Assembly (NCBI GenBank): GCA_002327235.1 | Contig: DCUX01000046.1 | Span: 4,032 to 68,031, forward strand | Origin: Firmicutes bacterium UBA2203 | Lineage (GTDB): Bacteria > Bacillota > Desulfotomaculia > Desulfotomaculales > Nap2-2B | Direction: 5' to 3' | DNA: 64,000 nucleotides | Shown: positions 5,295 to 63,041 of the stretch, one piece after another | Numbering within the stretch: the first letter of the stretch is position 1 | How the letters are laid out: the number at the start of each line of letters is the position of its first letter | The notes under the pieces: generated by a model | The model's database searches: none | What the model was told of the DNA's origin: nothing | The model's input: the letters and a program-made list of their open reading frames with translations, nothing else | Program-made: the position numbers and the translations under genes

Positions 5295-5564
5295 ATGCAT
5301 TCAAAGAACAGGGTAAGTACCGCCAAAGATAAACCGGAGTATATAACCAGTATAAATAAAAAATTATGTAAACGCTGCGGTATTTGCGTCCAATTTTGTC
5401 CTCAGGGGGTTTTTACTCAGGACGAAGAAGGGTATCCGGTGGTTAAAGAGCAAGAAAAATGTACTAGTTGCCTGTCTTGTTTTTACTATTGTCCGGATTT
5501 TGCCGTAGAAGTAAAAAAACATGAGGAAGGAAAAGATAAAAAAGATGGCGGGGGAGAAAAATAA
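5295..5564 (+). CDS. 2-oxoacid:ferredoxin oxidoreductase delta subunit (2x[4Fe-4S] ferredoxin-type)
   Basis: 89 aa with two CxxCxxCxxxCP motifs (CKRCGICVQFCP, CTSCLSCFYYCP). First gene of the four-gene OFOR operon. Confidence 0.75.
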   Translation: MHSKNRVSTAKDKPEYITSINKKLCKRCGICVQFCPQGVFTQDEEGYPVVKEQEKCTSCLSCFYYCPDFAVEVKKHEEGKDKKDGGGEK

Positions 5565-23549: not shown

Positions 23550-25334
23550 CTATAATTTTGGGGGTAAATTTTTATCTGGGTTAACTATAATTGTGTGGTG
23601 GTTAGTATAAGTTACAAAACCAGGCCTTGTCCCAGGGGGTTTTTTAACGTGTTTCCGGTCGGTATAATCTACGGGAACATTGTGAGACTGCCGGGCCCGG
23701 CTGTAAAAAGCCGCTAATATTGCCGCTTCCTGAAGGGTGGCAGGGGGTACGGGCTGTCCGTTGGTTTTGATGATCACGTGGGAGCCGGGAATTTCCTTGG
23801 TGTGCAACCATACGTCATTTTCTTGAGCCAGGCGCATGGTCAAATAATCATTTTGCCGGTTATTTTTTCCCACGAGAATGGTTAAGTTATCGGAAGAAAT
23901 AAATTTTAAAGGGAGGCTAGTTTTTTGTTTGGGTTCGGGTTTATCTTTACTTTTTTGGCCGGTGGTTGCTTTAGCAAGGTAACCGGTATTCATAAGCTCC
24001 TGGCTTATTTCGGCCAGGTCGTCTAAGGTACCTGTCTGCTGCAAAGCGGTTTCCACGCTTAAAAGATAAAACCACTCTTGGCGCGCTTTTTCTAGCAAAG
24101 ACTGGACAGCCAGGCGGGCTTTTTTGGCTTTTTGATACTTCTTAAAAAAAGCTTTCGCGTTTTCTACCGGGGAAAACTGCGGGTCCAGGGAAATTAAAAC
24201 GCGGGATGAAGGGTCATGAAAATCGGCTAAACTTACTTCGGTTAGTCCCTTTTCTAAACAATAGGCGTTAGCCAGTAATAATTCACCGTATAACTTAAAT
24301 TTTTCCGCTTTGGCTGCTTCGGTTAGGTTTTCTTCCCAAGTGGAAATTTTTTTGACCTGGTAATCTACTTCTTTTTGTACTAAAGAAATCAAGCGCTGTT
24401 TTTTCTGGTTAAAGCTGGAACGTTCCTCCCGAAAGGTAAAAAATTGGTCAACAAGGGCATTCATGGTAGCCTTATGAGCGGCTAGTTTTTTCAAGTGGGT
24501 TAAGGGAAAAGCAGCAAATTCCACCGGCTCACCGGCTTCATTAACCATAAGCGCAGGCTGAAAGTCTCCCTGTCTGACTTTTGAGCAAAGAAGCTTTAGT
24601 TTTTGCCCCAAGACATTTACTTCGTATTCCCCGCACTCGTTTAAGGTTAGGTCTGCCGACAGCCCGGCATGGTATATTATTTCCCGGCTCATTAAGGTAC
24701 TCAATCCCTCAACGCGCCGCTGTAAAATTTGCTCTAGTTTGGCCGCTAAAGGTTGTTGCCAGATGTCCTCCTGAAAATTTGCTTCATTTAAAGTACTAAG
24801 GGCAAGCTTATCCTGTTTTGGCGGGTGAAGGTAAGGACGGCCCGGCAGGACTTCCCGGTAGCGGCTGATATTAAAAGAGTACCGTTTTATACCGTCAATA
24901 ATTGTTTGGGTGGCCGCGTCAACCAAAATAATGTTGCTATGTTTTCCCATTATTTCACAAACCAGGTTTTTTTGGGTTAACTGGTTTATCTCATTTCTTA
25001 CTTCAATTTGAAAAATTAATATTCTATCTAAACCTTCCTGAACCAGGTTAACAATACGCCCTCCCTCTAAATGTTTGCGTAAAACCATACAAAAAAGAGG
25101 CGGTGAAGCCGGATTCCCCTTGGCGTGTCCGGTCAGGTGAATTCTTGCCTCGCTGGCGTGGGCCGAAATTAAAAGCCGGTACCGTTTTCCCGGCTGGCGC
25201 AAGATAACGTTTAGCTCCAAAGGAGCAGGCTGGTATATCCGGTCAATTCGGCTGCCCAATAGGGGCGTTATATTTAACGTCCCGTCAATTAACTCTTTTT
25301 TTATGGCGGCTAAAACAAGCCCGTCAAAAGGCAT
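23550..25334 (-). CDS. rqcH: RqcH / NFACT-family ribosome quality control protein (fibronectin-binding protein A-like, YloA)
   Basis: 594 aa. N-terminal MPFDG...L, central coiled coil, C-terminal DUF814-like ...WLHTKEIPGSHVII.... Confidence 0.85.
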   Translation of the reverse strand: MPFDGLVLAAIKKELIDGTLNITPLLGSRIDRIYQPAPLELNVILRQPGKRYRLLISAHASEARIHLTGHAKGNPASPPLFCMVLRKHLEGGRIVNLVQEGLDRILIFQIEVRNEINQLTQKNLVCEIMGKHSNIILVDAATQTIIDGIKRYSFNISRYREVLPGRPYLHPPKQDKLALSTLNEANFQEDIWQQPLAAKLEQILQRRVEGLSTLMSREIIYHAGLSADLTLNECGEYEVNVLGQKLKLLCSKVRQGDFQPALMVNEAGEPVEFAAFPLTHLKKLAAHKATMNALVDQFFTFREERSSFNQKKQRLISLVQKEVDYQVKKISTWEENLTEAAKAEKFKLYGELLLANAYCLEKGLTEVSLADFHDPSSRVLISLDPQFSPVENAKAFFKKYQKAKKARLAVQSLLEKARQEWFYLLSVETALQQTGTLDDLAEISQELMNTGYLAKATTGQKSKDKPEPKQKTSLPLKFISSDNLTILVGKNNRQNDYLTMRLAQENDVWLHTKEIPGSHVIIKTNGQPVPPATLQEAAILAAFYSRARQSHNVPVDYTDRKHVKKPPGTRPGFVTYTNHHTIIVNPDKNLPPKL

Positions 25335-34001: not shown

Positions 34002-35231
34002 ATGCTGACGAAAAAATTTATTACCTTGGGAATTACAGGAGGAATTGCGGCCTATAAAGCCGCTGAATTAGCTAGCACGCTAAATCAGGCCGGGGCCGAA
34101 GTTCACGTAATTATGACCCGGGCAGCCCAAAAATTTATTAGGCCCGTAACATTTCAAGCCTTAACCGGTCAACCGGTCCACACCGCTATGTTTACCCGGT
34201 TAACTGGTTGGCGGGTGGCTCATGTTGATCTGGCTACGCGCTCCGATTTAATCGTTATAGTTCCAGCTACGGCTAATATTTTGGGTAAGTTGGCTCACGG
34301 TATTGCCGATGATTTATTAAGCACCACTCTTTTAGCGGCCACCTGCCCTGTCTTGCTTTGTCCGGCCATGAATACCGGTATGTACCAAAACCCCATTGTG
34401 CAGGCAAATATAAGCCGCTTAAAGGAACTGGGCTATTATATTATAGAACCGGCTACCGGTTGGTTGGCTTGCGGACAGGAAGGCCCTGGCAGGTTACCGG
34501 CGTTAGATTTAATTTTTAATCAGATTAAAGATTTGCTAACGAAAACAAGCAGGGCAGGTTTCCAGACGGCGCGAAGCGACTGGCAAGGACTAACGGTTAT
34601 GATTACGGCCGGAGGAACAAGAGAGCCCCTTGACCCTATCCGACATATTTCCAATCGCAGTTCGGGGAAAATGGGCTACGCTCTAGCCCGGGATGCTCTT
34701 AACCGAGGAGCCCAGGTGATTTTAATTTCCGCCCCTACAAACGTGCCTCCTCCGGTAGGCGCAAAGGTAATTTGGGTTGAAAGGACTAAAGAGATGTACG
34801 AACAGGTTTTAACCCATTTTCCAAAGGTTGACGTAGTTTTTAAAGCGGCCGCAGTAGCCGATTATTCCCCCCGGTTTAAGGCGAACCAAAAGATAAAAAA
34901 AAAGGATGAGGTATATCTGCTGGAACTGGAAAAAACTCCGGATATCCTGCTTGAATTAGGCCAACGCAAACAACCCCACCAAATCCTGGTTGGTTTTGCG
35001 GCCGAAACAGAAAATTTAGAGGAAAATGCCCGGCGTAAACTAGCTCAAAAAAATTTAGATTTAATTGTGGCTAATGACGTCACTCAGCCTGGCTCAGGAT
35101 TTGGCCAGGACACAAATATAGTTAAAATAATTTATCCCGACGGGAAGATTATCTCTTTGCCTCAAATGGAAAAAACAGCCTTAGCCCACCACATTCTTGA
35201 TTTGGTGTTACCTTTACGAGTCAAAAAATGA
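34002..35231 (+). CDS. coaBC: Bifunctional phosphopantothenoylcysteine decarboxylase / phosphopantothenate-cysteine ligase
   Basis: 409 aa. GITGGIAAYK flavoprotein N-domain. ITAGGTREPLDPIRHISNRSSGKMG ligase domain. Confidence 0.9.
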   Translation: MLTKKFITLGITGGIAAYKAAELASTLNQAGAEVHVIMTRAAQKFIRPVTFQALTGQPVHTAMFTRLTGWRVAHVDLATRSDLIVIVPATANILGKLAHGIADDLLSTTLLAATCPVLLCPAMNTGMYQNPIVQANISRLKELGYYIIEPATGWLACGQEGPGRLPALDLIFNQIKDLLTKTSRAGFQTARSDWQGLTVMITAGGTREPLDPIRHISNRSSGKMGYALARDALNRGAQVILISAPTNVPPPVGAKVIWVERTKEMYEQVLTHFPKVDVVFKAAAVADYSPRFKANQKIKKKDEVYLLELEKTPDILLELGQRKQPHQILVGFAAETENLEENARRKLAQKNLDLIVANDVTQPGSGFGQDTNIVKIIYPDGKIISLPQMEKTALAHHILDLVLPLRVKK

Positions 35232-35315
35232 AACCCCAAAAGATTACCCGGCAATCCTTCCTTTTCAAAGCATAAACAGGTCTTACTTTTCCCACATAAT
35301 ATAATAAATAAATTC

Positions 35316-35404
35316 GTAACTACTCAGGTTCAAAGGGGCAAAGGCACAAAGGCACAAAGTTTTTTCATTTTCCCTTGGACTTCTGTGCTTACCTGAATAG
35401 TTAC
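35316..35404. mobile_element. Family-D MITE-like element (89 bp) with terminal inverted repeats GTAACTACTCAGG / CCTGAATAGTTAC and 8-bp direct flank duplication
   Basis: ATAAATTC lies immediately left (35308-35315) and right (35405-35412). Internal CAAAGGCAC repeats. Related copies at 36148, 40706 and 57666. Confidence 0.75.
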
Positions 35405-36147: not shown

Positions 36148-36352
36148 GTAACTATTCAGGTAGGCACGTAGGTTCAAAAGCCTGCCCGCCAGGCTGGCAG
36201 GCAGGTAATCTACCAAAAAAAGATAAATAGGCTAGCCTGCCAGACAGGCGGGGCACAAAGGTCCAAAGTGAAATGAAAACATATAGAAATTAGAAATCTG
36301 CAAGCCTGGCAAAAAACTTTGTGCCTTTGCCCCTTTGAACCTGAGTAGTTAC
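36148..36352. mobile_element. Family-D MITE-like element (205 bp) carrying a nested family-E palindrome (36181-36255)
   Basis: Ends are GTAACTATTCAGG ... CCTGAGTAGTTAC. The right 36 bp are the exact reverse complement of 35316-35351. Inside is CCTGCCCGCCAGGCTGGCAGG...CCTGCCAGACAGGCGGGGCA. Confidence 0.75.
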
Positions 36353-36381
36353 ATAAAAATTATGGTTAAGGGAGAAAATTT

Positions 36382-40688: not shown

Positions 40689-40705
40689 CCCTTGCTTTAA
40701 AATAA

Positions 40706-40820
40706 GTAACTACTCAGGCACAAAGGCACAAAGTTTTTGTCTATTTATTACTTAATGTTTTTATTTCCCTTTGTGCCTTTGTGCCTTTGTGCCTTTGCCC
40801 CTTTGTGCCTGAGTAGTTAC
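40706..40820. mobile_element. Family-D MITE-like element (115 bp)
   Basis: GTAACTACTCAGGCACAAAGGCACAAAG ... CTTTGTGCCTTTGTGCCTTTGTGCCTTTGCCCCTTTGTGCCTGAGTAGTTAC. Confidence 0.75.
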
Positions 40821-40935
40821 ATTAATTCTATGTAATAAGGCATAGAAAATATAACCTTTAGATTAGAAAATAAAACGGTCGAAAAATTAGAGAACATGTT
40901 GGTAAATTTTGTTTTAAACAGGCAGGAAATTAAAG

Positions 40936-48386: not shown

Positions 48387-48430
48387 CCTAAGTAATTTAA
48401 GGGACAAAGTTTATAATAGTGGTGCCGTTG

Positions 48431-48596
48431 GTAGAGGCGTTTAATTTAATACCCCTACCAAGTGACACCAACTTGGTAGGTGCGCAAGTAGGGGCGTTAA
48501 ATTTAACGCCCCTATCGGTGCTTTTGGAGATTGGAAGTTGGAAGTTGGAACCAAAAAGTTCTAACCTCTAACCCCCAACCTCCAATTTCCAACTTC
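48431..48596. repeat. Repeat cluster: degenerate family-A palindrome (48431-48458), small hairpin, canonical family-A (48488-48515), family-B hexamer-periodic hairpin (48525-48596)
   Basis: GTAGAGGCGTTTAATTTAATACCCCTAC; GTAGGGGCGTTAAATTTAACGCCCCTAT; GGAGATTGGAAGTTGGAAGTTGGAAC...CCAACCTCCAATTTCCAACTTC. Confidence 0.8.
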
Positions 48597-48798
48597 AAAA
48601 AGGCAGGGTTTGCCTTTAGCCTAATCATATAGCATCTTTTTTGTTTCTCCTTGGTTAGCCAAGGGTTTTTTTATTTTTAACCTTTTTAGTTGTTTCATGG
48701 GAAAAGAATAAAACTATGTTATTAAGGCAATAATGAAATTGAGGTAATACGGAAAATAAGCTAAAAAAGATTAAAAAATTAGGAGTGAAGGAACAACG

Positions 48799-51165: not shown

Positions 51166-52083
51166 ATGTTAAAACCTTCATTTGTCTTAATAGGGTGCGG
51201 TAAGGTAGGTAGTGCTCTAGCCTGTCTTTTGCAAGAAAAAAATTACCCGCTAGTTGGGGTAGCGAGTAAAAGCCTTGCTTCGGCTCAAAGATTAGCTGAA
51301 AAATTAAATTGTCAAGCCGCAAATAAACCAGAAAAAATAACCCCTCAAGCAGAGCTGGTTTTTATTACTACGCCTGACCGGGAGATTGCTCAGGTGGCCC
51401 AAAGGGTAGCTAAAAAAGGAGGTTTTCACCGAGGCCAAGTAGTTATTCATACCAGTGGTGTTTGTGAGGCCGGCGAATTACGTGGGGTACGGGAAGCAGG
51501 GGCCTTTGCCGCATCCATGCACCCAATTCAAGCGGTAGCTGATGTAGAAACAGCCCTTAAGAATTTACCGGGCTCTTATTTTGCCCTGGAAGGAGATACC
51601 GAGGCTTTACCGGTAGTAACCACCTTAGTTTCTGATTTAGGAGGACGTTTTTTCTTTATTCAGGCTAAAGATAAGCCTCTTTACCATACCGCGGCCTGCG
51701 TAATTTCAAACTATTTAGTGGGTTTGGCTCATTTTAGTACGGGATTATATCAAAGTTTTGGCTTGTCAAGAAAAGAGGCTTTTCAAGCCTTGTTACCTCT
51801 TATTCGGGGTACGCTTGATAACATTGAGCAAAATGGTCCTATCTTAGCTCTTACCGGGCCGGTAGATAGAGATGACGAAGAAACCATTAAAAGTCATTTA
51901 AATGCATTAACGCAAAAAGTGACCCAGGAGGAAATTAATCTATACTGTGCTCTTGGGCTATACATCATTTCTATTGCCCGGGAAAAGGGGAGTCTTAACG
52001 CTGAGCAGGCCGCAAGATTACAGACAATTTTTACTACAGGAAGAATTCAGCCGCGTATTTTAGAAAGGCTAAAAATCAAGTAG
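51166..52083 (+). CDS. Rossmann-fold / DUF2520-type protein, putative ketopantoate reductase-like first gene of the pan operon
   Basis: 305 aa. N-terminal IGCGKVGSALA dinucleotide-binding motif. The position upstream of panBCD suggests a role in pantoate synthesis (inference). Confidence 0.6.
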   Translation: MLKPSFVLIGCGKVGSALACLLQEKNYPLVGVASKSLASAQRLAEKLNCQAANKPEKITPQAELVFITTPDREIAQVAQRVAKKGGFHRGQVVIHTSGVCEAGELRGVREAGAFAASMHPIQAVADVETALKNLPGSYFALEGDTEALPVVTTLVSDLGGRFFFIQAKDKPLYHTAACVISNYLVGLAHFSTGLYQSFGLSRKEAFQALLPLIRGTLDNIEQNGPILALTGPVDRDDEETIKSHLNALTQKVTQEEINLYCALGLYIISIAREKGSLNAEQAARLQTIFTTGRIQPRILERLKIK

Positions 52084-52107
52084 GGGCGTTAAATTTAACG
52101 CCCCTAC
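52080..52107. repeat. Family-A 28-bp palindrome (canonical)
   Basis: GTAGGGGCGTTAAATTTAACGCCCCTAC. Its TAG (52081-52083) is the stop codon of the preceding gene. Confidence 0.9.
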
Positions 52108-54303: not shown

Positions 54304-54417
54304 GAGGTGAAAAGTCGGAAAGGAGAATAAGAAGGGATTTGGTGGTGCCGAATCTCCCTATTAAAGTTCTACCTCCAACTTCTGTTTTTGTCAACCGGGA
54401 CGGTTGACCTACCATTT
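54303..54417. repeat. Degenerate family-B arm(s) plus family-C palindrome (54390-54417)
   Basis: ...GATTTGGTGGTGCC...AGTTCTACCTCCAACTTC...GTCAACCGGGACGGTTGACCTACCATTT. Same module order, inverted, as at 56087-56185. Confidence 0.65.
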
Positions 54418-56075: not shown

Positions 56076-56193
56076 GGCGTTAATTTAGGTCAACCGGGAC
56101 GGTTGACCTACCATTTTGGTGGTAAGAGGTTGGAGGTTGGAACTTCTTGATTCCAACTTCCAACTTCCAACTTCCAACTTCCAATCGGAGGTG
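56072..56193. repeat. Mosaic repeat block: family-A half-site (56072-56087), family-C palindrome (56087-56117), family-B hairpin (56125-56185) ending in CCAATCGGAGGTG
   Basis: TATAGGGCGTTAATTTA; AGGTCAACCGGGACGGTTGACCTACCATTTT; GAGGTTGGAGGTTGGAAC...TTCCAACTTCCAACTTCCAACTTCCAATCGGAGGTG. Contains the nadB TAG stop and the nadC SD. Confidence 0.8.
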
Positions 56194-57052: not shown

Positions 57053-57730
57053 GTGGAAGGGAAAAAAATAAGGGTGAAGCAGCGCTTTTTTTACTGTCCT
57101 AAATGCGGCGGAAATTTAAAATATAAACGGTACCGAGAGCGTCCCCGTTTGGTTTGCGTTAGGTGCAGTTATGTCTTTTATGAAAACCCGGCCGTAGGGG
57201 TAGCCGCCATTGTTTTAAATAAAGACAGGCAGATATTGCTAGGAAGGCGCGGTACCACATTGGTGGATATTAGTCATCAGATGTCGGGCGTTAGAAGAAA
57301 AAAACAAACTAATTCTTCAACCATACCGGCGACCGGCAATGAACAACCGGCGAGCTTATATAAAGGACTTTGGTGCATCCCCTGTGGCTACGTTGAATAC
57401 GATGAAGATGTTTACCAGGCGGTGATCCGGGAATTTAAAGAGGAAACCAATTTGGACATTATCTTAAATGGGGTTTTTACGGTACAGTCTAATTTCCATA
57501 ATCCTGAACTGCATACCGTAGGAATATGGTTTATGGCTAAAGTAACGGGGGGAGAATTGCGGGCGGGAGACGATTTAGACCAACTGGCTTATTGTAGTTT
57601 AACTGACCCGCCACCGCTTGCTTTTCCTACGGATAAAATTGTCCTGGACATGCTGGCTAAAACCTTTCAGGTAGGCACAGAGGAGCAAAGGCACAGAGGC
57701 ACAAAGGGAAATGAAACAACCATGCTGTAG
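57053..57730 (+). CDS. NUDIX hydrolase with N-terminal zinc ribbon, an internal ~30-aa insertion and a repeat-derived C-terminal tail
   Basis: CPKCGG...CVRC ribbon. Nudix box GYVEYDEDVYQAVIREFKEETNL. About 40 residues lie between LLGRRG and GLW, where I recall roughly 8-10 in NUDIX proteins. The last ~20 codons lie in the family-D element. Confidence 0.75.
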   Translation: MEGKKIRVKQRFFYCPKCGGNLKYKRYRERPRLVCVRCSYVFYENPAVGVAAIVLNKDRQILLGRRGTTLVDISHQMSGVRRKKQTNSSTIPATGNEQPASLYKGLWCIPCGYVEYDEDVYQAVIREFKEETNLDIILNGVFTVQSNFHNPELHTVGIWFMAKVTGGELRAGDDLDQLAYCSLTDPPPLAFPTDKIVLDMLAKTFQVGTEEQRHRGTKGNETTML

Positions 57731-57850
57731 GGGCATATTGCAATACGCCCCTACAAAGGAGAATGAAAATCCAAGGATTTTCGGATGAAAACATATAGAG
57801 ATCTGCAGGTCTGGCAAAAAAACTTTGTGCCTTTGAACCTGAGTAGTTAC
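57666..57850. mobile_element. Family-D element lacking its left terminal repeat, carrying a nested variant family-A palindrome (57727-57754)
   Basis: TTCAGGTAGGCAC... shared with 36155. Right end ...CTGGCAAAAAAACTTTGTGCCTTTGAACCTGAGTAGTTAC shared with 36305-36352. Nested GTAGGGGCATATTGCAATACGCCCCTAC contains the NUDIX TAG stop. Confidence 0.7.
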
Positions 57851-57864
57851 ACAATAACGGAAAA

Positions 57865-58847: not shown

Positions 58848-59630
58848 ATGCTTTTAGGGTTTGATGTGGGCAACACTAATATTGTCTTAGGGGTATATCA
58901 GCATAAAGAATTGCTGAAACACTGGCGTTTGTCTACTTTTCCTTACCGTACGGCTGATGAGTACGGGATGTTGTTAATGGATCTTTTTGGCCATGCCGGT
59001 ATCATTTTTCAAGATATTAAAGCCTTAATTATTTCCTCGGTGGTTCCTCCTCTTATGCTGGCTTTAGAACAAATGGCAAAGAATTACTTTAATTTAACTC
59101 CTTTAATTGTTGGGCCCGGCATAAAAACAGGTATGCCTATAAAATATGAAAATCCGCGTGAAATTGGGGCCGACCGGATTGTCAATGCCGTTGCCGGACA
59201 CGCTTTATACGGTAGCCCGCTTATTATCGTAGATTTTGGCACCGCCACCACTTTTTGCGTTATTTCCGCACACGGGGAATATTTGGGAGGGGCTATCGCT
59301 CCAGGGATTAATATTTCGACCGAAGCCTTGTTTACCCGGGCGGCCAAACTCCCCCGCGTTGAACTGGTAAAACCCCCCACCGTTATCGGTAAAAATACGG
59401 TTAACAGTATGCAGTCAGGTATTCTTTACGGTTTCGTGGGTCAGGTTGACGAAATTGTTCGCCGGATTAGAAAAGAACTGGGGGAGAATCCCTTTGTCCT
59501 GGCTACGGGAGGGTTGGCGGAGCTAATTGCCAAAGAATCAAGCACAATTAACGAGGTTGATCCTTTGCTTACTTTAAAAGGATTACAAATTATTTACGAG
59601 CGCAACAGCCAGTTGGAAGTTGGAAGTTAG
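58848..59630 (+). CDS. coaX: Type III pantothenate kinase
   Basis: 260 aa. [11 protein letters not shown] start, GADR and DFGTATT motifs. The last 6 codons and TAG lie in a family-B repeat. Confidence 0.9.
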
Positions 59631-59682
59631 AAGTTGGAAGTTGGAATTAAAAAGTTCCAACTTCCAACCTCCAATCGGAGGT
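59611..59682. repeat. Family-B hexamer-periodic hairpin ending in CCAATCGGAGGT
   Basis: AGTTGGAAGTTGGAAGTTAGAAGTTGGAAGTTGGAATTAAAAAGTTCCAACTTCCAACCTCCAATCGGAGGT. Holds the coaX stop (59628-59630) and the nadE SD (GGAGG 5 nt before ATG 59687). Confidence 0.85.
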
Positions 59683-59686
59683 AAAG

Positions 59687-61468
59687 ATGAGAATTGCCCT
59701 TGCCCAACTCAACCCTATAATTGCCAATATTAAGTATAATACGGTTAGGATTTTACAGGCTATAGATTTTGCCGGCCGGTTAAAAGCTGATTTAGTTATC
59801 TTTCCTGAACTGGCGATAATAGGTTACCCGCCGCGCGATCTTTTGTGGCGCCAGGATATTTTAGAGCAGGTAGAAACAGCTTTAAAAAAAGATATCGCGC
59901 CCAAAAGCAGAGAGCTAGGAGTGCTAATTGGGGCTCCGGTAGTTGATGCCGGGAATCTTTACAATGCGGCCTTGCTTTTTTACGAAGGCAGGCTATTGGG
60001 TCGCCAGGATAAAACATTGCTGCCGGATTATGATGTCTTTGAAGAAAACCGGTATTTTAAACCGGCCCTAAAACGCGAACCGCTTTTATTTAAAGGAGTA
60101 AAGTTTGGTCTGACCGTTTGCGAAGACATTTGGAACGATAAAGATTACTGGAACAGGCGCCATTACTCGGTTGATCCCGTGGAAGAATTAATTGCCCAAG
60201 GGGCAGATTTGATCATTAATATTTCTGCTTCCCCTTATTATTACGGTAAGATTGATTTGCGCTCCGATATGCTGCAAAAAATGGCCGCTAAGTATCAAAA
60301 AATTTTTATTTACGCTAACCAAGTGGGCGGTAATGATGAGCTTATTTTTGACGGGTCCAGTTTAGCCGTTAATTCTAAAGGGGAAATAATAGGCCGGGCC
60401 GGAAGCTTTGGTGAAGATATGCTGTTCTTTAGCCTTTGGAGGGGCGTTAAATTTAACGCCCCTACTATGTACTTAGAAAGTTGGGCACCTGCCCGTCAGG
60501 CTGGCAGAAGGAATAATGATGGTATGATAAATAATCTAACAGCCTGCCAGACAGGCGGGCAGACAGTCGGGAAGGATAAAGAGGAGCGTTTTCCTCAAAA
60601 AATTTACTACGCGTCCTCGCCGGAGGATATAGGTTGTCTTTATCATGCTCTGGTGCTAGGAATTAAGGATTATTTGCGCAAAACCGGCTTTAAACGGGTC
60701 CTGGTGGGTTTAAGCGGGGGCATTGATTCTTCTGTTGTTGCTGCTCTTTCTGCTGCTGCCTGCGGTAAGGAAAATGTTTTAGGGGTGGCCATGCCCTCAA
60801 AATACTCTTCCCCGGGCAGCCTAGCCGATGCACGCCAGTTGGCTTTAAACCTGGGTATAGCGTACCGGGAAATACCTATTCAAGATATCTTTGATAAATA
60901 TCTGGCCACTTTAAACAAAGAAGGCGTTCCTCTGGTTGATTTGGCCGAAGAAAATATTCAGGCCCGCATTCGCGGCAATATTTTAATGTTCATTTCTAAC
61001 CGGGAGGGTTACCTTACCTTAAGCACGGGAAACAAATCGGAGTTGGCGGTAGGGTACTGCACCCTTTACGGGGACATGTGCGGCGGTCTGGCCGTTATTT
61101 CTGACGTCCCTAAAACAATGGTTTATGTTTTGGCCAGGTACATTAACCGGGAACGGGAAATCATCCCCGCCTCAGTGCTGGTTAAGCCTCCCTCTGCCGA
61201 ACTAAGGCCGAACCAAACCGATCAAGATTCTTTACCCCCTTACGAAATCCTGGACGCTATCTTGCACCTGTATATTGAAGAAAATAAACCGGCGGCCGAA
61301 ATTATCGCCGCCGGCTATGATGCGGCACTAGTGCGGGAAATTATCCGAAAAATTGACCGGGCAGAATATAAACGGCGCCAAGCTGCCCTGGGTCTTAAAG
61401 TAACCACCAAGGCCTTTGGTATGGGGCGGCGGATACCCATTGCGTGGCAGCAGCCAATTAGAAGTTAG
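59687..61468 (+). CDS. nadE: Glutamine-dependent NAD+ synthetase (CN-hydrolase + NAD synthetase domains) with repeat-derived in-frame insertion in the interdomain linker
   Basis: 593 aa. N-terminal nitrilase-type domain (FPELAIIGYPP..., C in GLTVCEDIW). C-terminal GLSGGIDSS PP-loop. Insertion at about residues 251-292. Confidence 0.9.
   Translation: MRIALAQLNPIIANIKYNTVRILQAIDFAGRLKADLVIFPELAIIGYPPRDLLWRQDILEQVETALKKDIAPKSRELGVLIGAPVVDAGNLYNAALLFYEGRLLGRQDKTLLPDYDVFEENRYFKPALKREPLLFKGVKFGLTVCEDIWNDKDYWNRRHYSVDPVEELIAQGADLIINISASPYYYGKIDLRSDMLQKMAAKYQKIFIYANQVGGNDELIFDGSSLAVNSKGEIIGRAGSFGEDMLFFSLWRGVKFNAPTMYLESWAPARQAGRRNNDGMINNLTACQTGGQTVGKDKEERFPQKIYYASSPEDIGCLYHALVLGIKDYLRKTGFKRVLVGLSGGIDSSVVAALSAAACGKENVLGVAMPSKYSSPGSLADARQLALNLGIAYREIPIQDIFDKYLATLNKEGVPLVDLAEENIQARIRGNILMFISNREGYLTLSTGNKSELAVGYCTLYGDMCGGLAVISDVPKTMVYVLARYINREREIIPASVLVKPPSAELRPNQTDQDSLPPYEILDAILHLYIEENKPAAEIIAAGYDAALVREIIRKIDRAEYKRRQAALGLKVTTKAFGMGRRIPIAWQQPIRS
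60438..60562. repeat. Family-A palindrome (60438-60465) plus family-E palindrome (60486-60562) inside the nadE reading frame
   Basis: GGAGGGGCGTTAAATTTAACGCCCCTAC (27/28 to canonical). CACCTGCCCGTCAGGCTGGCAG...AGCCTGCCAGACAGGCGGGCAG resembles 36181-36255. Translated as WRGVKFNAPT...WAPARQAGRR...LTACQTGGQT without stops. Confidence 0.85.
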
Positions 61469-61528
61469 AAGTTAGAATTAAAAAGTTCCAACCTCCAACC
61501 TCCAACCTCCAACTTCCAACTTCCAACC
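61458..61528. repeat. Family-B hexamer-periodic hairpin
   Basis: TTAGAAGTTAGAAGTTAGAATTAAAAAGTTCCAACCTCCAACCTCCAACCTCCAACTTCCAACTTCCAACC. Holds the nadE TAG stop (61466-61468). Confidence 0.85.
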
Positions 61529-61575
61529 ACGATAAGACAGGCCTTCGGCCTGCCCAAGCAAAGCGAGGAATTTAT

Positions 61576-62982
61576 TTGGCGGAGCATTTACAGGTTATTC
61601 TAGCGATTGCTATTTTTTTACTTACTTACGCCGTAATTATATCGGAGAAAATTCACCGGGCCGTGGCCGCCATGATTGGGGCCGCTTTACTGGCCCTAAC
61701 CCAAATTTTAAGCGTTGAACAGGCTGTTCAGGCCATTGACTTTAACACCATCGGTTTATTAATTGGGATGATGATTATTGTCGGTATCACCAGACAAACC
61801 GGTTTTTTTGAGTATATGGCTATAAAAGCGGCCAAGTTAGGAAAAGGCGAGCCTTTTCGAATTATCGGCTCTTTAGCGCTGGTCACGGCAGTAACCTCTG
61901 CTTTTTTAGATAATGTTACTACGGTATTGCTTATTGTTCCCGTGACCTTTGCCATTGCAAAACAGCTTGAAGTCAGCCCTATCCCCTTTTTAGTGGCGGA
62001 AATAATTTCTTCTAATATTGGCGGCACCGCCACGCTTATTGGAGACCCGCCTAACATCATGATCGGCAGCAGGGCCGGCCTGGGTTTTATGGACTTTTTT
62101 CTTAACCTGACCCCGGTTATTATCGTTATTTTTATTATTACCATTTTAGCTATCCAGGTTATTTATCGCCGGCAACTCTTTACCCGCCCGGAATTGCAGG
62201 AAAACATCCAGCAGTTAAACGAAAAAGATGAGATTAAGGATTACCTTTTACTAAAGAAATGTTTGATTGTAATTACCTTGACGGTAGCCGGATTTGTTTT
62301 ACACCAGTACCTGCACCTGGAATCTTCGGTAATTGCCTTAAGCGGGGCTAGTTTGCTGCTCCTGATTACCAGAGAGGACCCGGCTAAGGTCTTTCAGACG
62401 GTAGAATGGCCGGTGATTTTCTTTTTTGTGGGTTTATTTGTTGTCGTTGGGGCCCTGGATAAGGTTGGGGTAATTGAAAAGATAGCCAAATTTTCCTTAG
62501 ACGTAACTAAGGGAGCATTAGTTCCAACCGCCACCTTAATCTTATGGCTTTCGGCAGTTGCCTCTGCCTTTGTAGACAATATTCCTTTTGTAGCCACGAT
62601 GATTCCGCTTATCCAGGATATGGGGAGACTGGGTCACATAAGCAATCTGAACCTGCTTTGGTGGAGCTTGTCTCTGGGAGCTTGTTTAGGGGGCAACGGA
62701 ACGATCATAGGGGCGTCGGCCAACGTGGTGGTGGTTGGAATGGCCGAAAAAAAAGGGTTTCTTATTTCCTTTATTAGCTACCTAAAGGTCGCTTTTCCTT
62801 TAATGATTATGTCTATTATTGTTTCTCACCTTTACTTATTGTTTTGGCACCATTATCCCGGTCTGATATCCTTTGCGGGTACATTGCTGGCCGCGGTTAT
62901 TTTGGGACTAGCTTCAAGGCTGCTTAACGGCCGGTTAATCAAACGAGAGCAGTATAAAACAAAAATTGAACCGGATATTTAA
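61576..62982 (+). CDS. ArsB/NhaD-superfamily permease (YbiR/citrate-transporter-like)
   Basis: 468 aa, about 12 TM. ...FLDNVTTVLL..P... and ...GGTATLIGDPPNIMI... motifs, repeated in the second half (FVDNIPFVATMIP; GGNGTIIGASANVV). Confidence 0.75.
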   Translation: MAEHLQVILAIAIFLLTYAVIISEKIHRAVAAMIGAALLALTQILSVEQAVQAIDFNTIGLLIGMMIIVGITRQTGFFEYMAIKAAKLGKGEPFRIIGSLALVTAVTSAFLDNVTTVLLIVPVTFAIAKQLEVSPIPFLVAEIISSNIGGTATLIGDPPNIMIGSRAGLGFMDFFLNLTPVIIVIFIITILAIQVIYRRQLFTRPELQENIQQLNEKDEIKDYLLLKKCLIVITLTVAGFVLHQYLHLESSVIALSGASLLLLITREDPAKVFQTVEWPVIFFFVGLFVVVGALDKVGVIEKIAKFSLDVTKGALVPTATLILWLSAVASAFVDNIPFVATMIPLIQDMGRLGHISNLNLLWWSLSLGACLGGNGTIIGASANVVVVGMAEKKGFLISFISYLKVAFPLMIMSIIVSHLYLLFWHHYPGLISFAGTLLAAVILGLASRLLNGRLIKREQYKTKIEPDI

Positions 62983-62991
62983 CCCGGATAA

Positions 62992-63019
62992 GTAGGGGCG
63001 TTAAATTTAACGCCCCTAC
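62992..63019. repeat. Family-A 28-bp palindrome (canonical)
   Basis: GTAGGGGCGTTAAATTTAACGCCCCTAC, between the permease stop and the rmuC SD. Confidence 0.9.
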
Positions 63020-63041
63020 TTGGAGGAAAGGAGGAAACAAG

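Follow-up and report, generated by a model that had tools for sequence, protein, structure and literature searches.

In the bacterial interspersed mosaic elements (BIMEs) of Escherichia coli, different small palindromic motifs stand side by side in mosaics, and elements of the IS200/IS605 type insert without target-site duplication. Systems of repetitive extragenic palindromes (REPs) with a REP-associated tyrosine transposase (RAYT), and the REP doublets forming hairpins (REPINs), were reportedly described by Nunvar in 2010 and by Bertels and Rainey in 2011. In-frame insertions of repeats into genes are documented for the Rickettsia palindromic elements (RPEs), for the GTAG and CGTC REPs of several phyla, and for various miniature transposable elements with inverted repeats (MITEs) (PMC3733652, PMC3184786), with the MITE fusions reviewed in PMC3184786. 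Intragenic GTAG and CGTC REPs are overrepresented in genes for repair and replication (Di Nocera, De Gregorio and Rocco 2013, PMC3733652); the same survey describes REP clusters, and Firmicutes are not among the GTAG REP hosts that it lists. Here we describe two palindromic repeats that lie in frame in nadE, the gene for glutamine-dependent NAD+ synthetase, of Firmicutes bacterium UBA2203, within a 64,000-nucleotide (nt) stretch of contig DCUX01000046.1 (positions 4,032 to 68,031; the whole stretch is called the window below). The nadE case belongs to an already documented phenomenon, since in-frame repeat insertions are known from Rickettsia and from other bacteria. It stands out for its host clade and for the clear succession of steps that can be followed in an essential enzyme. 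A first-pass annotation of the window had correctly named Rickettsia as a known case of such in-frame colonization, but the phenomenon is less rare elsewhere than it claimed (PMC3733652, PMC3184786).

Two palindromic repeats at the domain junction of NadE

The window NadE combines an N-terminal CN-hydrolase domain with the Glu-Lys-Cys triad (residues 2-246; PF00795 at 9.6e-24) and a C-terminal PP-loop NAD synthase domain (residues 319-566; PF02540 at 3.7e-76). Both repeats, here called palindrome A and element B, sit at the exact junction between these domains, within one unbroken open reading frame (ORF) of 593 amino acids (aa) that contains no stops (Table 1). Palindrome A, at 60438-60465, contains the 24-nt perfect palindrome AGGGGCGTTAAATTTAACGCCCCT (60440-60463), and with its flanks GGAGGGGCG...CGCCCCTAC it matches the family consensus GTAGGGGCGTTAAATTTAACGCCCCTAC at 27 of 28 positions. 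Element B starts 22 nt 3' of palindrome A and has two 19-nt arms, spaced 36 nt apart and 84% complementary. The predicted RNA folds reach -18.5 kcal/mol (z -4.95) for palindrome A and -30.4 kcal/mol for element B. The first-pass annotation had seen the 27/28 copy, its location between the two domains (here by Pfam), and the stop-free translation of both repeats, all of which we could reproduce. It had put the insert at about 42 aa, leaving about 551 aa; the linker has actually gained 6 + 28 = 34 aa, and uninserted orthologs have 556 aa. A further 3 aa at the NadE C terminus come from a third repeat family (family C).

To place these repeats in time, we took close NadE orthologs of differing length from a protein search and aligned their DNA codon by codon over the linker (Table 1). 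Orthologs at 85% identity (P0004 to P0006) have neither repeat, the ortholog at 89% (P0002) has the palindrome only, and the ortholog at 92% (P0001) has both. Alignable orthologs at 60-75% identity, from many genera, have a six-residue Y-x-D/E-N-x-L linker without element B. Because these distant orthologs have the short-linker state, the alignments indicate that the long linker is the product of insertions, with A preceding B. Presence is also nested in the tree, carriers of A forming a subclade and carriers of B a subset of the A carriers, and the reading frame is preserved in all versions (+18, +72, and +84 nt). Orthologs without the DNA repeats carry no homologous linker, an outcome on which the first-pass proposal of inserted repeats had hinged. 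Comparison of the empty site in locus L003 (TGGGTA/AAGGCA) with the filled sites of L004 and the window gives a clean insertion of 72 or 84 nt. Very probably, then, two non-autonomous palindromic repeats were inserted successively into the DNA encoding the interdomain linker. Palindrome A would have entered nadE in the common ancestor of the window and two sister lineages, after the split from the UBA4795 lineage; element B would have followed 22 nt downstream in a subset of the A lineages and would later have been remodeled, acquiring a lineage-specific interior subtype and, in the window, a 12-nt duplication.

The reverse history, in which the long linker is ancestral and relatives lost it through deletion of hairpin-prone DNA, has in its favor that palindromes are deletion prone and that the short sequence of L001, AATGCCCTA, is similar to the right arm, AACGCCCCTA. 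It is contradicted by the outgroup polarity, as all of the alignable distant orthologs examined (60-75%) have the 6-residue linker without B. The nested distribution of A and B in the tree, and the membership of both in dispersed families with near-identical copies elsewhere, likewise speak against ancestral presence, which we regard as very improbable. A metagenome assembly or binning error that misjoined repeat copies into nadE might be suspected, as the genome is dense in short repeats and the relatives are metagenome-assembled genomes (MAGs) or single-cell assemblies. The JGI contig P0003 has both inserts at 100% identity, although it possibly comes from the same source as the window. Two further species-level lineages, from NCBI (L003) and ENA (L004), carry elements at the same nucleotide positions as the window, each with its own point substitutions, and the frame is kept in each version. 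Given this recurrence with independent substitutions in two other related-lineage assemblies, an artefact appears unlikely in the extreme as the source of the inserts.

Retained function and fate of the inserted linker

Pairwise ratios of nonsynonymous to synonymous substitution (dN/dS) for nadE were 0.09-0.13 at dS 0.28-0.47, carrier pairs included. The catalytic residues E41, K109, and C145 and the SGGIDS loop (S343-GGIDS) are intact and fall in invariant alignment columns. The closest solved structures to the window protein are 5kha, 4f4h, and 3n05. Residues 255-301 are without counterpart in 5kha, where the matched stretches meet at chain residues 253 and 255. The AlphaFold2 model, for which 67 sequences were used (predicted template modeling score 0.80), matches the fold of all three structures and is confident over most of both domains; the inserts come out as a low-confidence loop (predicted local distance difference test score of <50 at residues 254-256 and 267-292).

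Unrelated inserts of 20-150 aa occur at the same junction in Desulfofundulus, Moorella, and Desulfotomaculum copahuensis, so by these sequence comparisons the NadE interdomain junction is generally permissive. The enzyme would stay functional because the 34 residues fall in a length-variable, predicted-disordered junction. We infer that the insert is translated from the open frame together with purifying selection on both flanking domains. In Desulfofundulus kuznetsovii (L111, 2533-2787) and D. copahuensis (L112, 10910-11317), the junction inserts are long, of low complexity, and rich in Ala, Gly, and Pro; no related copies that would point to a repeat origin were found in the 7-22 kb of flanking DNA. 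The D. copahuensis NadE has a second insert in its glutaminase domain.

An addition of 34 residues could harm an essential two-domain enzyme with an interdomain ammonia tunnel, and nadE might accordingly be a decaying pseudogene or a gene of split function. We find this hardly credible: dN/dS is about 0.1 between carriers despite dS of 0.28-0.40, stops and frameshifts are absent, the catalytic and nucleotide-binding residues are all intact, and carriers of at least three lineages have diverged after the initial insertion. The first-pass annotation spoke of a linker that is tolerated or even exapted, and tolerance is what purifying selection and the loop position bear out. Exaptation would mean that the inserted hairpins or peptide are now functional, for example, as mRNA structure pacing translation between the domains or as a promoter and start codon inside B for a separate synthetase domain. 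The 28-mer is indeed better conserved than its flanks at orthologous sites; L003 and L004 each have a single substitution within the 24-nt core, synonymous in both cases; the nadE mRNA would contain two strong hairpins of the energies given above; and a sigma-70-like CTGGCA-16-TATGAT with an upstream TG lies inside B (60501-60528), before the in-frame Met280. Yet intergenic copies are equally conserved, so conservation belongs to the repeat family rather than to nadE, and promoter-like matches are at background (5 found versus 2.9 +/- 1.9 expected from shuffles). Close relatives do without A, without B, or without both, the interior of B differs in sequence and length between the two carriers, and the peptide is predicted to be disordered. 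The presence of the same palindrome in many unrelated proteins argues against a protein-specific role. Nothing favors exaptation over tolerance on this evidence; it is not supported, and we consider it unlikely. The NadE insert is best read as a tolerated passenger, not a new functional module.

Palindrome A is a dispersed, GTAG-tagged repeat

Six other copies of palindrome A with up to three mismatches lie in the window (25261, 25498, 48490, 50489, 52082, and 62994), compared with zero in dinucleotide-preserving shuffles of it. A degenerate further copy is found at 48428-48457, and the total is 7-8 in 64 kb. We scanned one genome per species for the exact 22-nt core; all counts below cover the matches listed, which are incomplete samples of draft genomes. 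The carriers among them include Peptococcaceae bacterium SCADC1_2_3, Firmicutes bacterium UBA4795, and Desulfotomaculum sp. UBA9916, the last being closest to the window (about 94-95% nucleotide identity). Three related draft genomes contain at least 30, at least 40, and at least 16 exact copies, of which 25/30, 34/40, and 11/16 have the GTAG head. The conserved unit is exactly 28 bp long, with GTA before the core and TAC after it in most copies and nothing conserved beyond.

Among 97 exact copies from the related clade, 36 follow an open frame of 100 or more codons within 40 nt. The TAG stop codon is furnished by GTAG in 14 of these; ORF 51166..52083 of the window and nadE of L001 and L003 are examples. 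About 6 of the 97 are in frame inside Pfam-verified genes. Palindrome A has two stop-free frames on either strand (RGVKFNAPT or VGALNLTPL), and the third frame contains TAG and TAA. Stop-frame insertions appear to persist at the 3' ends of genes. Palindrome A lacks a U tract and was not called an intrinsic terminator, an Rfam scan of 59600-61700 at E <= 1 gave sub-threshold chance matches only, and searching the literature for its sequence yielded no paper.

In variant palindromes the outer stem GTAGGGGC/GCCCCTAC is retained, while the inner stems vary yet remain perfectly symmetric (GTATTGCAATAC, GTATAGCTATAC, GTATGGCCATAC, and GTTTAATTAAAC). They occur in the window at 57728-57755 and in L004 (3670), L020 (1723), L023 (5443), L029 (4410), and L078 (7752). 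The paired arm changes suggest either selection on the hairpin or the copying of one arm from the other. Genes located between paired palindromes (L012, L029, L033, L037, and L078) are ordinary housekeeping genes. A GTAGGGGCG half-site at 34730-34738 was dismissed as a chance match, lying within a conserved-looking stretch (VILISAPTNVPPP) of ORF 34002..35231.

Palindrome A is in frame in other genes

All palindrome copies were screened for long open frames on both sides, and candidates were verified with Pfam. In-frame insertion into functional genes, as known from RPEs, is found in nadE, rqcH, hisD, ligA, mutS2, mtnA, and others (Table 1), so the search for further in-frame copies, which the first-pass annotation had proposed for the whole genome, did turn some up in the window and in other genomes. 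The rqcH insert adds 6 aa relative to all non-carrier orthologs and is common to relatives down to 87% identity; since these include the UBA4795 lineage, it is older than the nadE insertion. In hisD the gain is 4 aa, common to five close relatives and measured on close orthologs, as distant PDB homologs of HisD and MtnA are too imprecise for insert length. The hisD ortholog P0245 (84% to the SCADC gene) has an extra 16-residue insertion (PFSHRSSDVRRQEKNI) directly after its in-frame palindrome. As with A and then B in nadE, one insertion follows another, a hint that additional insertions are drawn to the palindrome.

Element B resembles a small MITE

The sole other copy of element B in the window is nested in a larger MITE-like element, in line with the first-pass annotation, and spans 36179-36255. 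Together with the two window copies, we found the element in L003, L004, L009, L037, L044, L072, and L097. The family has a left arm CCTGCCCGTCAGGCTGGCAG and a right arm CCTGCCAGACAGGCGGGCAG around a 30-40-nt AT-rich interior of two subtypes, and each arm is able to fold into its own small hairpin. With a length of about 75-85 nt, a noncoding origin, hairpin-forming inverted arms, an AT-rich core, and multiple copies, element B is like MITEs and palindrome-associated transposable elements (PATEs), and its arms, conserved across copies, are the terminal inverted repeats expected of a MITE. Unlike in those elements, the arms are only 84% complementary, the interior has two subtypes, and no conserved target motif could be made out. 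Empty and filled nadE sites reveal no target-site duplication for element B, which in this respect is like IS200/IS605-type elements; for palindrome A, the compared sites are too diverged for the junctions to be placed. No parent insertion sequence (IS) or TnpA for element B was identified in the window and the listed B loci, to which the search was confined. As in the BIMEs of E. coli and in REP clusters, A often adjoins B (in nadE, L037, L072, and L004), and tandem arrays of B occur in L044 and L037, but unlike in BIMEs, the motifs are unrelated in sequence.

Comparison with described repeats

Palindrome A is like the GTAG REPs (PMC3733652) in being a short (20-40 bp), GC-rich stem-loop with a GTAG end and in having tens of dispersed copies, mostly extragenic and just 3' of genes, with a minority in frame within genes. 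The repair and replication hosts are also alike (here mutS2, ligA, and uvrC; there uvrABCD, recBCD, polA, and a ligase), as are the nested and clustered arrangements with other repeats. In these respects, palindrome A behaves like a GTAG-tagged REP. It differs in that both strands of the unit, a perfect 28-bp palindrome, bear the GTAG head, in its long stem (12-14 bp), and in its AT-only centre. Further differences are the Peptococcaceae-like Firmicute as host, the presence of the identical 28-mer in many phyla, and that the sampled carrier genomes yielded no RAYT flanked by the repeats.

As far as the RPEs are portrayed in the parts of PMC3733652 and PMC3184786 that cite Ogata et al. 2000 and 2002, they share with the present repeats in-frame palindromes in housekeeping genes, extra peptides tolerated in permissive protein parts, and insertions betrayed by presence or absence among close relatives. 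By the same accounts, the RPE-1 type is about 105-146 bp long and encodes 30-50 aa, whereas the units here have 28 bp (net +4 to +6 aa) and about 72-84 nt. The RPE hosts are obligate intracellular alphaproteobacteria, whereas the host here is a free-living anaerobe. As unit lengths and host differ, the likeness to RPEs is taken as one of the way of working and not of membership; no relationship in sequence was seen, though none was sought.

A proposed mechanism and the evidence against it

On the proposed account, palindrome A is a REP-like hairpin element of 28 bp, headed by GTAG and placed mostly just 3' of genes, and element B an element of about 80 nt with hairpin-forming arms around an AT-rich core, like a small MITE or PATE. 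Insertion would be blind to frame, with selection acting as the filter: open-frame copies would survive only where the protein tolerates extra residues (loops, linkers, and tails), and stop-frame copies only close to the 3' end of a gene, with GTAG turned into its stop codon. Beyond the insertions themselves, their order, their translation-compatible frame, their structural position, the purifying selection on nadE, and the family behavior of both repeats, we infer that a Y1 (HUH) transposase, either a RAYT or one of the IS200 type, mobilizes the elements, which would move through it as single-stranded hairpins.

Our tblastn and phmmer searches for such transposases covered the full set of 2,501 ORFs from the window and 110 loci. 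The only matches were in L021 (Edwardsbacteria) and L055 (Firmicutes bacterium UBA4053), and neither ties palindrome A to a transposase in the carrier genomes. The L021 gene (717-1317, in a MAG), which would lend the REP-like reading and such an enzyme indirect support, is a RAYT-like Y1 transposase gene scoring 51 bits on NF047646, below the cutoff of 80. It contains palindrome A in frame, and immediately upstream of the start codon there is a sister palindrome, GTAGGGGCGACCCG.CGGGTCGCCCCTAC (GTAGGGGCGACCCGCCGGGTCGCCCCTAC), with a second copy at 5508-5536. The RAYT-like gene of L055 (7500-8000; 76.7 bits on NF047646) is cut by the locus end and contains the in-frame palindrome GCACAGGCAAGATGCCTGTGC.

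Several observations weigh against this account. The window and the sampled loci of SCADC1_2_3, UBA9916, and UBA4795 yielded no gene of the RAYT or IS200 type, and the L055 gene, the one RAYT-like gene in a related Firmicutes MAG, is followed by a different GTAG REP (GTAGCACAGGCTTCCAGCCTGTGC). The GTAG present in most copies of palindrome A is base paired with the CTAC of the opposite end, while it is unpaired in described REPs. Net gains were 18 nt (nadE), 18 nt (rqcH), and 12 nt (hisD) and never the 28-nt unit length, so a simple cut-and-paste of a fixed unit is no explanation. The 28-mer evolves slowly: 11/224 positions differ at orthologous sites versus 195/960 in the flanks, or 9/196 versus 135/840 without the pair inflated by the B gap, the pairs being phylogenetically nonindependent in both counts. 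Something maintains the palindrome, which leaves room for a function. The window and L004 have different B interior subtypes at the same nucleotide position, which requires recombination, array collapse, or a second hit; with the 12-nt duplication of the window copy, it speaks for a collapsed or recombined array or for a hot spot that was hit twice.

The same 28-mer in many phyla

The most surprising by-product of the analysis is the cross-phylum distribution of palindrome A. Among the matches listed, the identical 28-mer GTAGGGGCGTTAAATTTAACGCCCCTAC is found in genomes labeled as about 10 phylum-level groups, with GC contents from 35% to 51%. The labels of the host MAGs include Sumerlaeota, Edwardsbacteria, Nitrospirota/Nitrospinota, Cyanobacteria, Ignavibacteriales, Thermodesulfobacteriota, Syntrophaceae, and others (loci L007, L014-L015, L020-L022, L035, L038, L046-L047, L052, L070-L071, L076, L078-L079, L082-L083, L086, L091, L093, L095, L100-L101, L104, L107, and L109). 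There are often several copies per genome, and in some genomes the 28-mer is embedded in a longer, genome-specific repeat.

It is possible, though we are doubtful, that GTAGGGGCGTTAAATTTAACGCCCCTAC is one very small, horizontally spreading mobile element, a widespread micro-element that recurrently adds a fixed 8-10-residue cassette (RGVKFNAPT or VGALNLTPL) to housekeeping proteins. The 28-mer would then be kept intact by a dedicated hairpin-recognizing enzyme or by arm-templated copying, not by descent. This idea builds on the cross-phylum identity, the symmetric variants, and the two of three frames that are stop free on both strands; the three comparable host genes, moreover, gained multiples of three nt only (12, 18, and 18).

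Other repeats around nadE and in the window

Family C consists of long hairpins of GGAAGTT/AACTTCC heptads, found in the window at 48518-48600, 56110-56190, 59600-59680, and 61445-61535, so that nadE has a copy on either side. The downstream copy replaces the palindrome A that L001 and L003 have at that spot and changes the NadE C terminus from WQQQ-stop to WQQPIRS-stop. A MITE-like family with terminal inverted repeats GTAACTACTCAGG(C/T)ACAAAGG is present at 36150-36364, 57660-57862, 40700-40832, and 35310-35343; its 36-kb copy hosts the nested element B, and its 57-kb copy hosts a variant palindrome at the equivalent place. Comparison of L004 (7455-7560) with the window (61468-63020) showed that L004 is without the ArsB-like gene between nadE and rmuC and that its nadE-rmuC junction consists of element B and then palindrome A. 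This arrangement suggests, at the sequence level, a repeat-mediated deletion of the ArsB-like gene. A 33-nt repeat with the palindrome GGTCAACCGGGACGGTTGACC (54385-54417 and 56084-56116) sits upstream of L-aspartate oxidase-like and quinolinate phosphoribosyltransferase-like genes, after which a Nudix-domain gene follows; it could be a NAD regulon operator or a terminator.

Table 1. Features of the window and compared sites in related and other genomes (a point in the strand column marks features given without strand)
Feature	Genome or locus	Position	Strand	Details
nadE, glutamine-dependent NAD+ synthetase, host of insertions	Window	59687..61468	+	593-aa ORF; Pfam
Palindrome A in nadE, 28-bp REP-like unit	Window	60438..60465	.	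Translated (W)RGVKFNAPT; net +18 nt versus ancestral YQDNAL linker
Element B in nadE, 84 nt	Window	60488..60571	+	Inverted arms, AT-rich interior; peptide PARQAGRRNNDGMINNLTACQTGGQTVG, 28 aa
Element B left arm, CTGCCCGTCAGGCTGGCAG	Window	60489..60507	+	84% complementary to right arm
Element B right arm, CTGCCAGACAGGCGGGCAG	Window	60544..60562	+	84% complementary to left arm
Tandem 12-nt repeat, CAGACAGGCGGG / CAGACAGTCGGG, right end of B	Window	60548..60571	+	DNA alignment; L004 has second unit alone
Element B, sole other window copy, intergenic	Window	36179..36255	+	Nested in MITE-like element, about 36150-36364
Palindrome A, intergenic type	Window	52080..52107	.	GTAG gives TAG stop of ORF 51166..52083
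Palindrome A, intergenic	Window	62992..63019	.	10 nt after ArsB-like gene adjoining nadE; kept in L001, L003, L004
Family C hairpin, AGAAGTT / AACYTCC heptads	Window	61445..61535	.	Overlaps nadE stop codon
Family C hairpin	Window	59600..59680	.	Just 5' of nadE; overlaps pantothenate kinase stop (ORF 58848..59630); -33 kcal/mol, z -5.8
rqcH, in-frame palindrome A, degenerate	Window	25259..25286	-	N-terminal domain, ORF 23550..25334; peptide IDGTLNITPLLG
nadE linker, neither element	L001, UBA4795 lineage			85% aa identity, 556 aa; FFS-YQDNAL-YLEDWV-RTKEE
nadE linker, palindrome only	L003, GCA_054600955			89%, 562 aa; FFS LCRGVKFNAPTI YLENWV KAKEE; net +18 nt
nadE linker, palindrome and element B	L004, ENA assembly			92%; 72-nt version of element B
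nadE linker, palindrome and element B	Window			84-nt element B; same nucleotide position as L004, between GTA/GCA and AAG
hisD	SCADC1_2_3			Palindrome inside Histidinol_dh domain
mtnA	SCADC1_2_3			Palindrome inside IF-2B domain
ligA	UBA9916			Palindrome between HHH_2 and BRCT
cobI-like	UBA9916			Palindrome in C-terminal tail; B arm also in frame
mutS2	UBA4795			Two palindrome copies in interdomain linkers
uvrC	Nitrospiria MAG			Palindrome inside GIY-YIG domain
hypE	Edwardsbacteria MAG			Palindrome just before AIRS domain
Eco57I-like methylase	CSMAG_2279			Palindrome inside matched domain region

Significance

The lineage series from an empty linker to +6 aa and then to +6 and +24/28 aa shows how selfish hairpin repeats extend an essential enzyme that nevertheless keeps working. 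It also identifies the junction between the NadE domains as permissive, and this site could serve for engineered insertions or tags. In-frame insertions of the REP type are now extended to anaerobic Firmicutes of hydrocarbon-degrading consortia, and the bias of other REP families toward repair and replication genes recurs in an unrelated sequence family. For annotation, the repeats of these genomes give stop codons, change C termini, inflate protein lengths, and mark sites of gene loss. If the cross-phylum 28-mer is truly a single mobile family, it would offer a handle on the transfer of REP-like elements between genomes.

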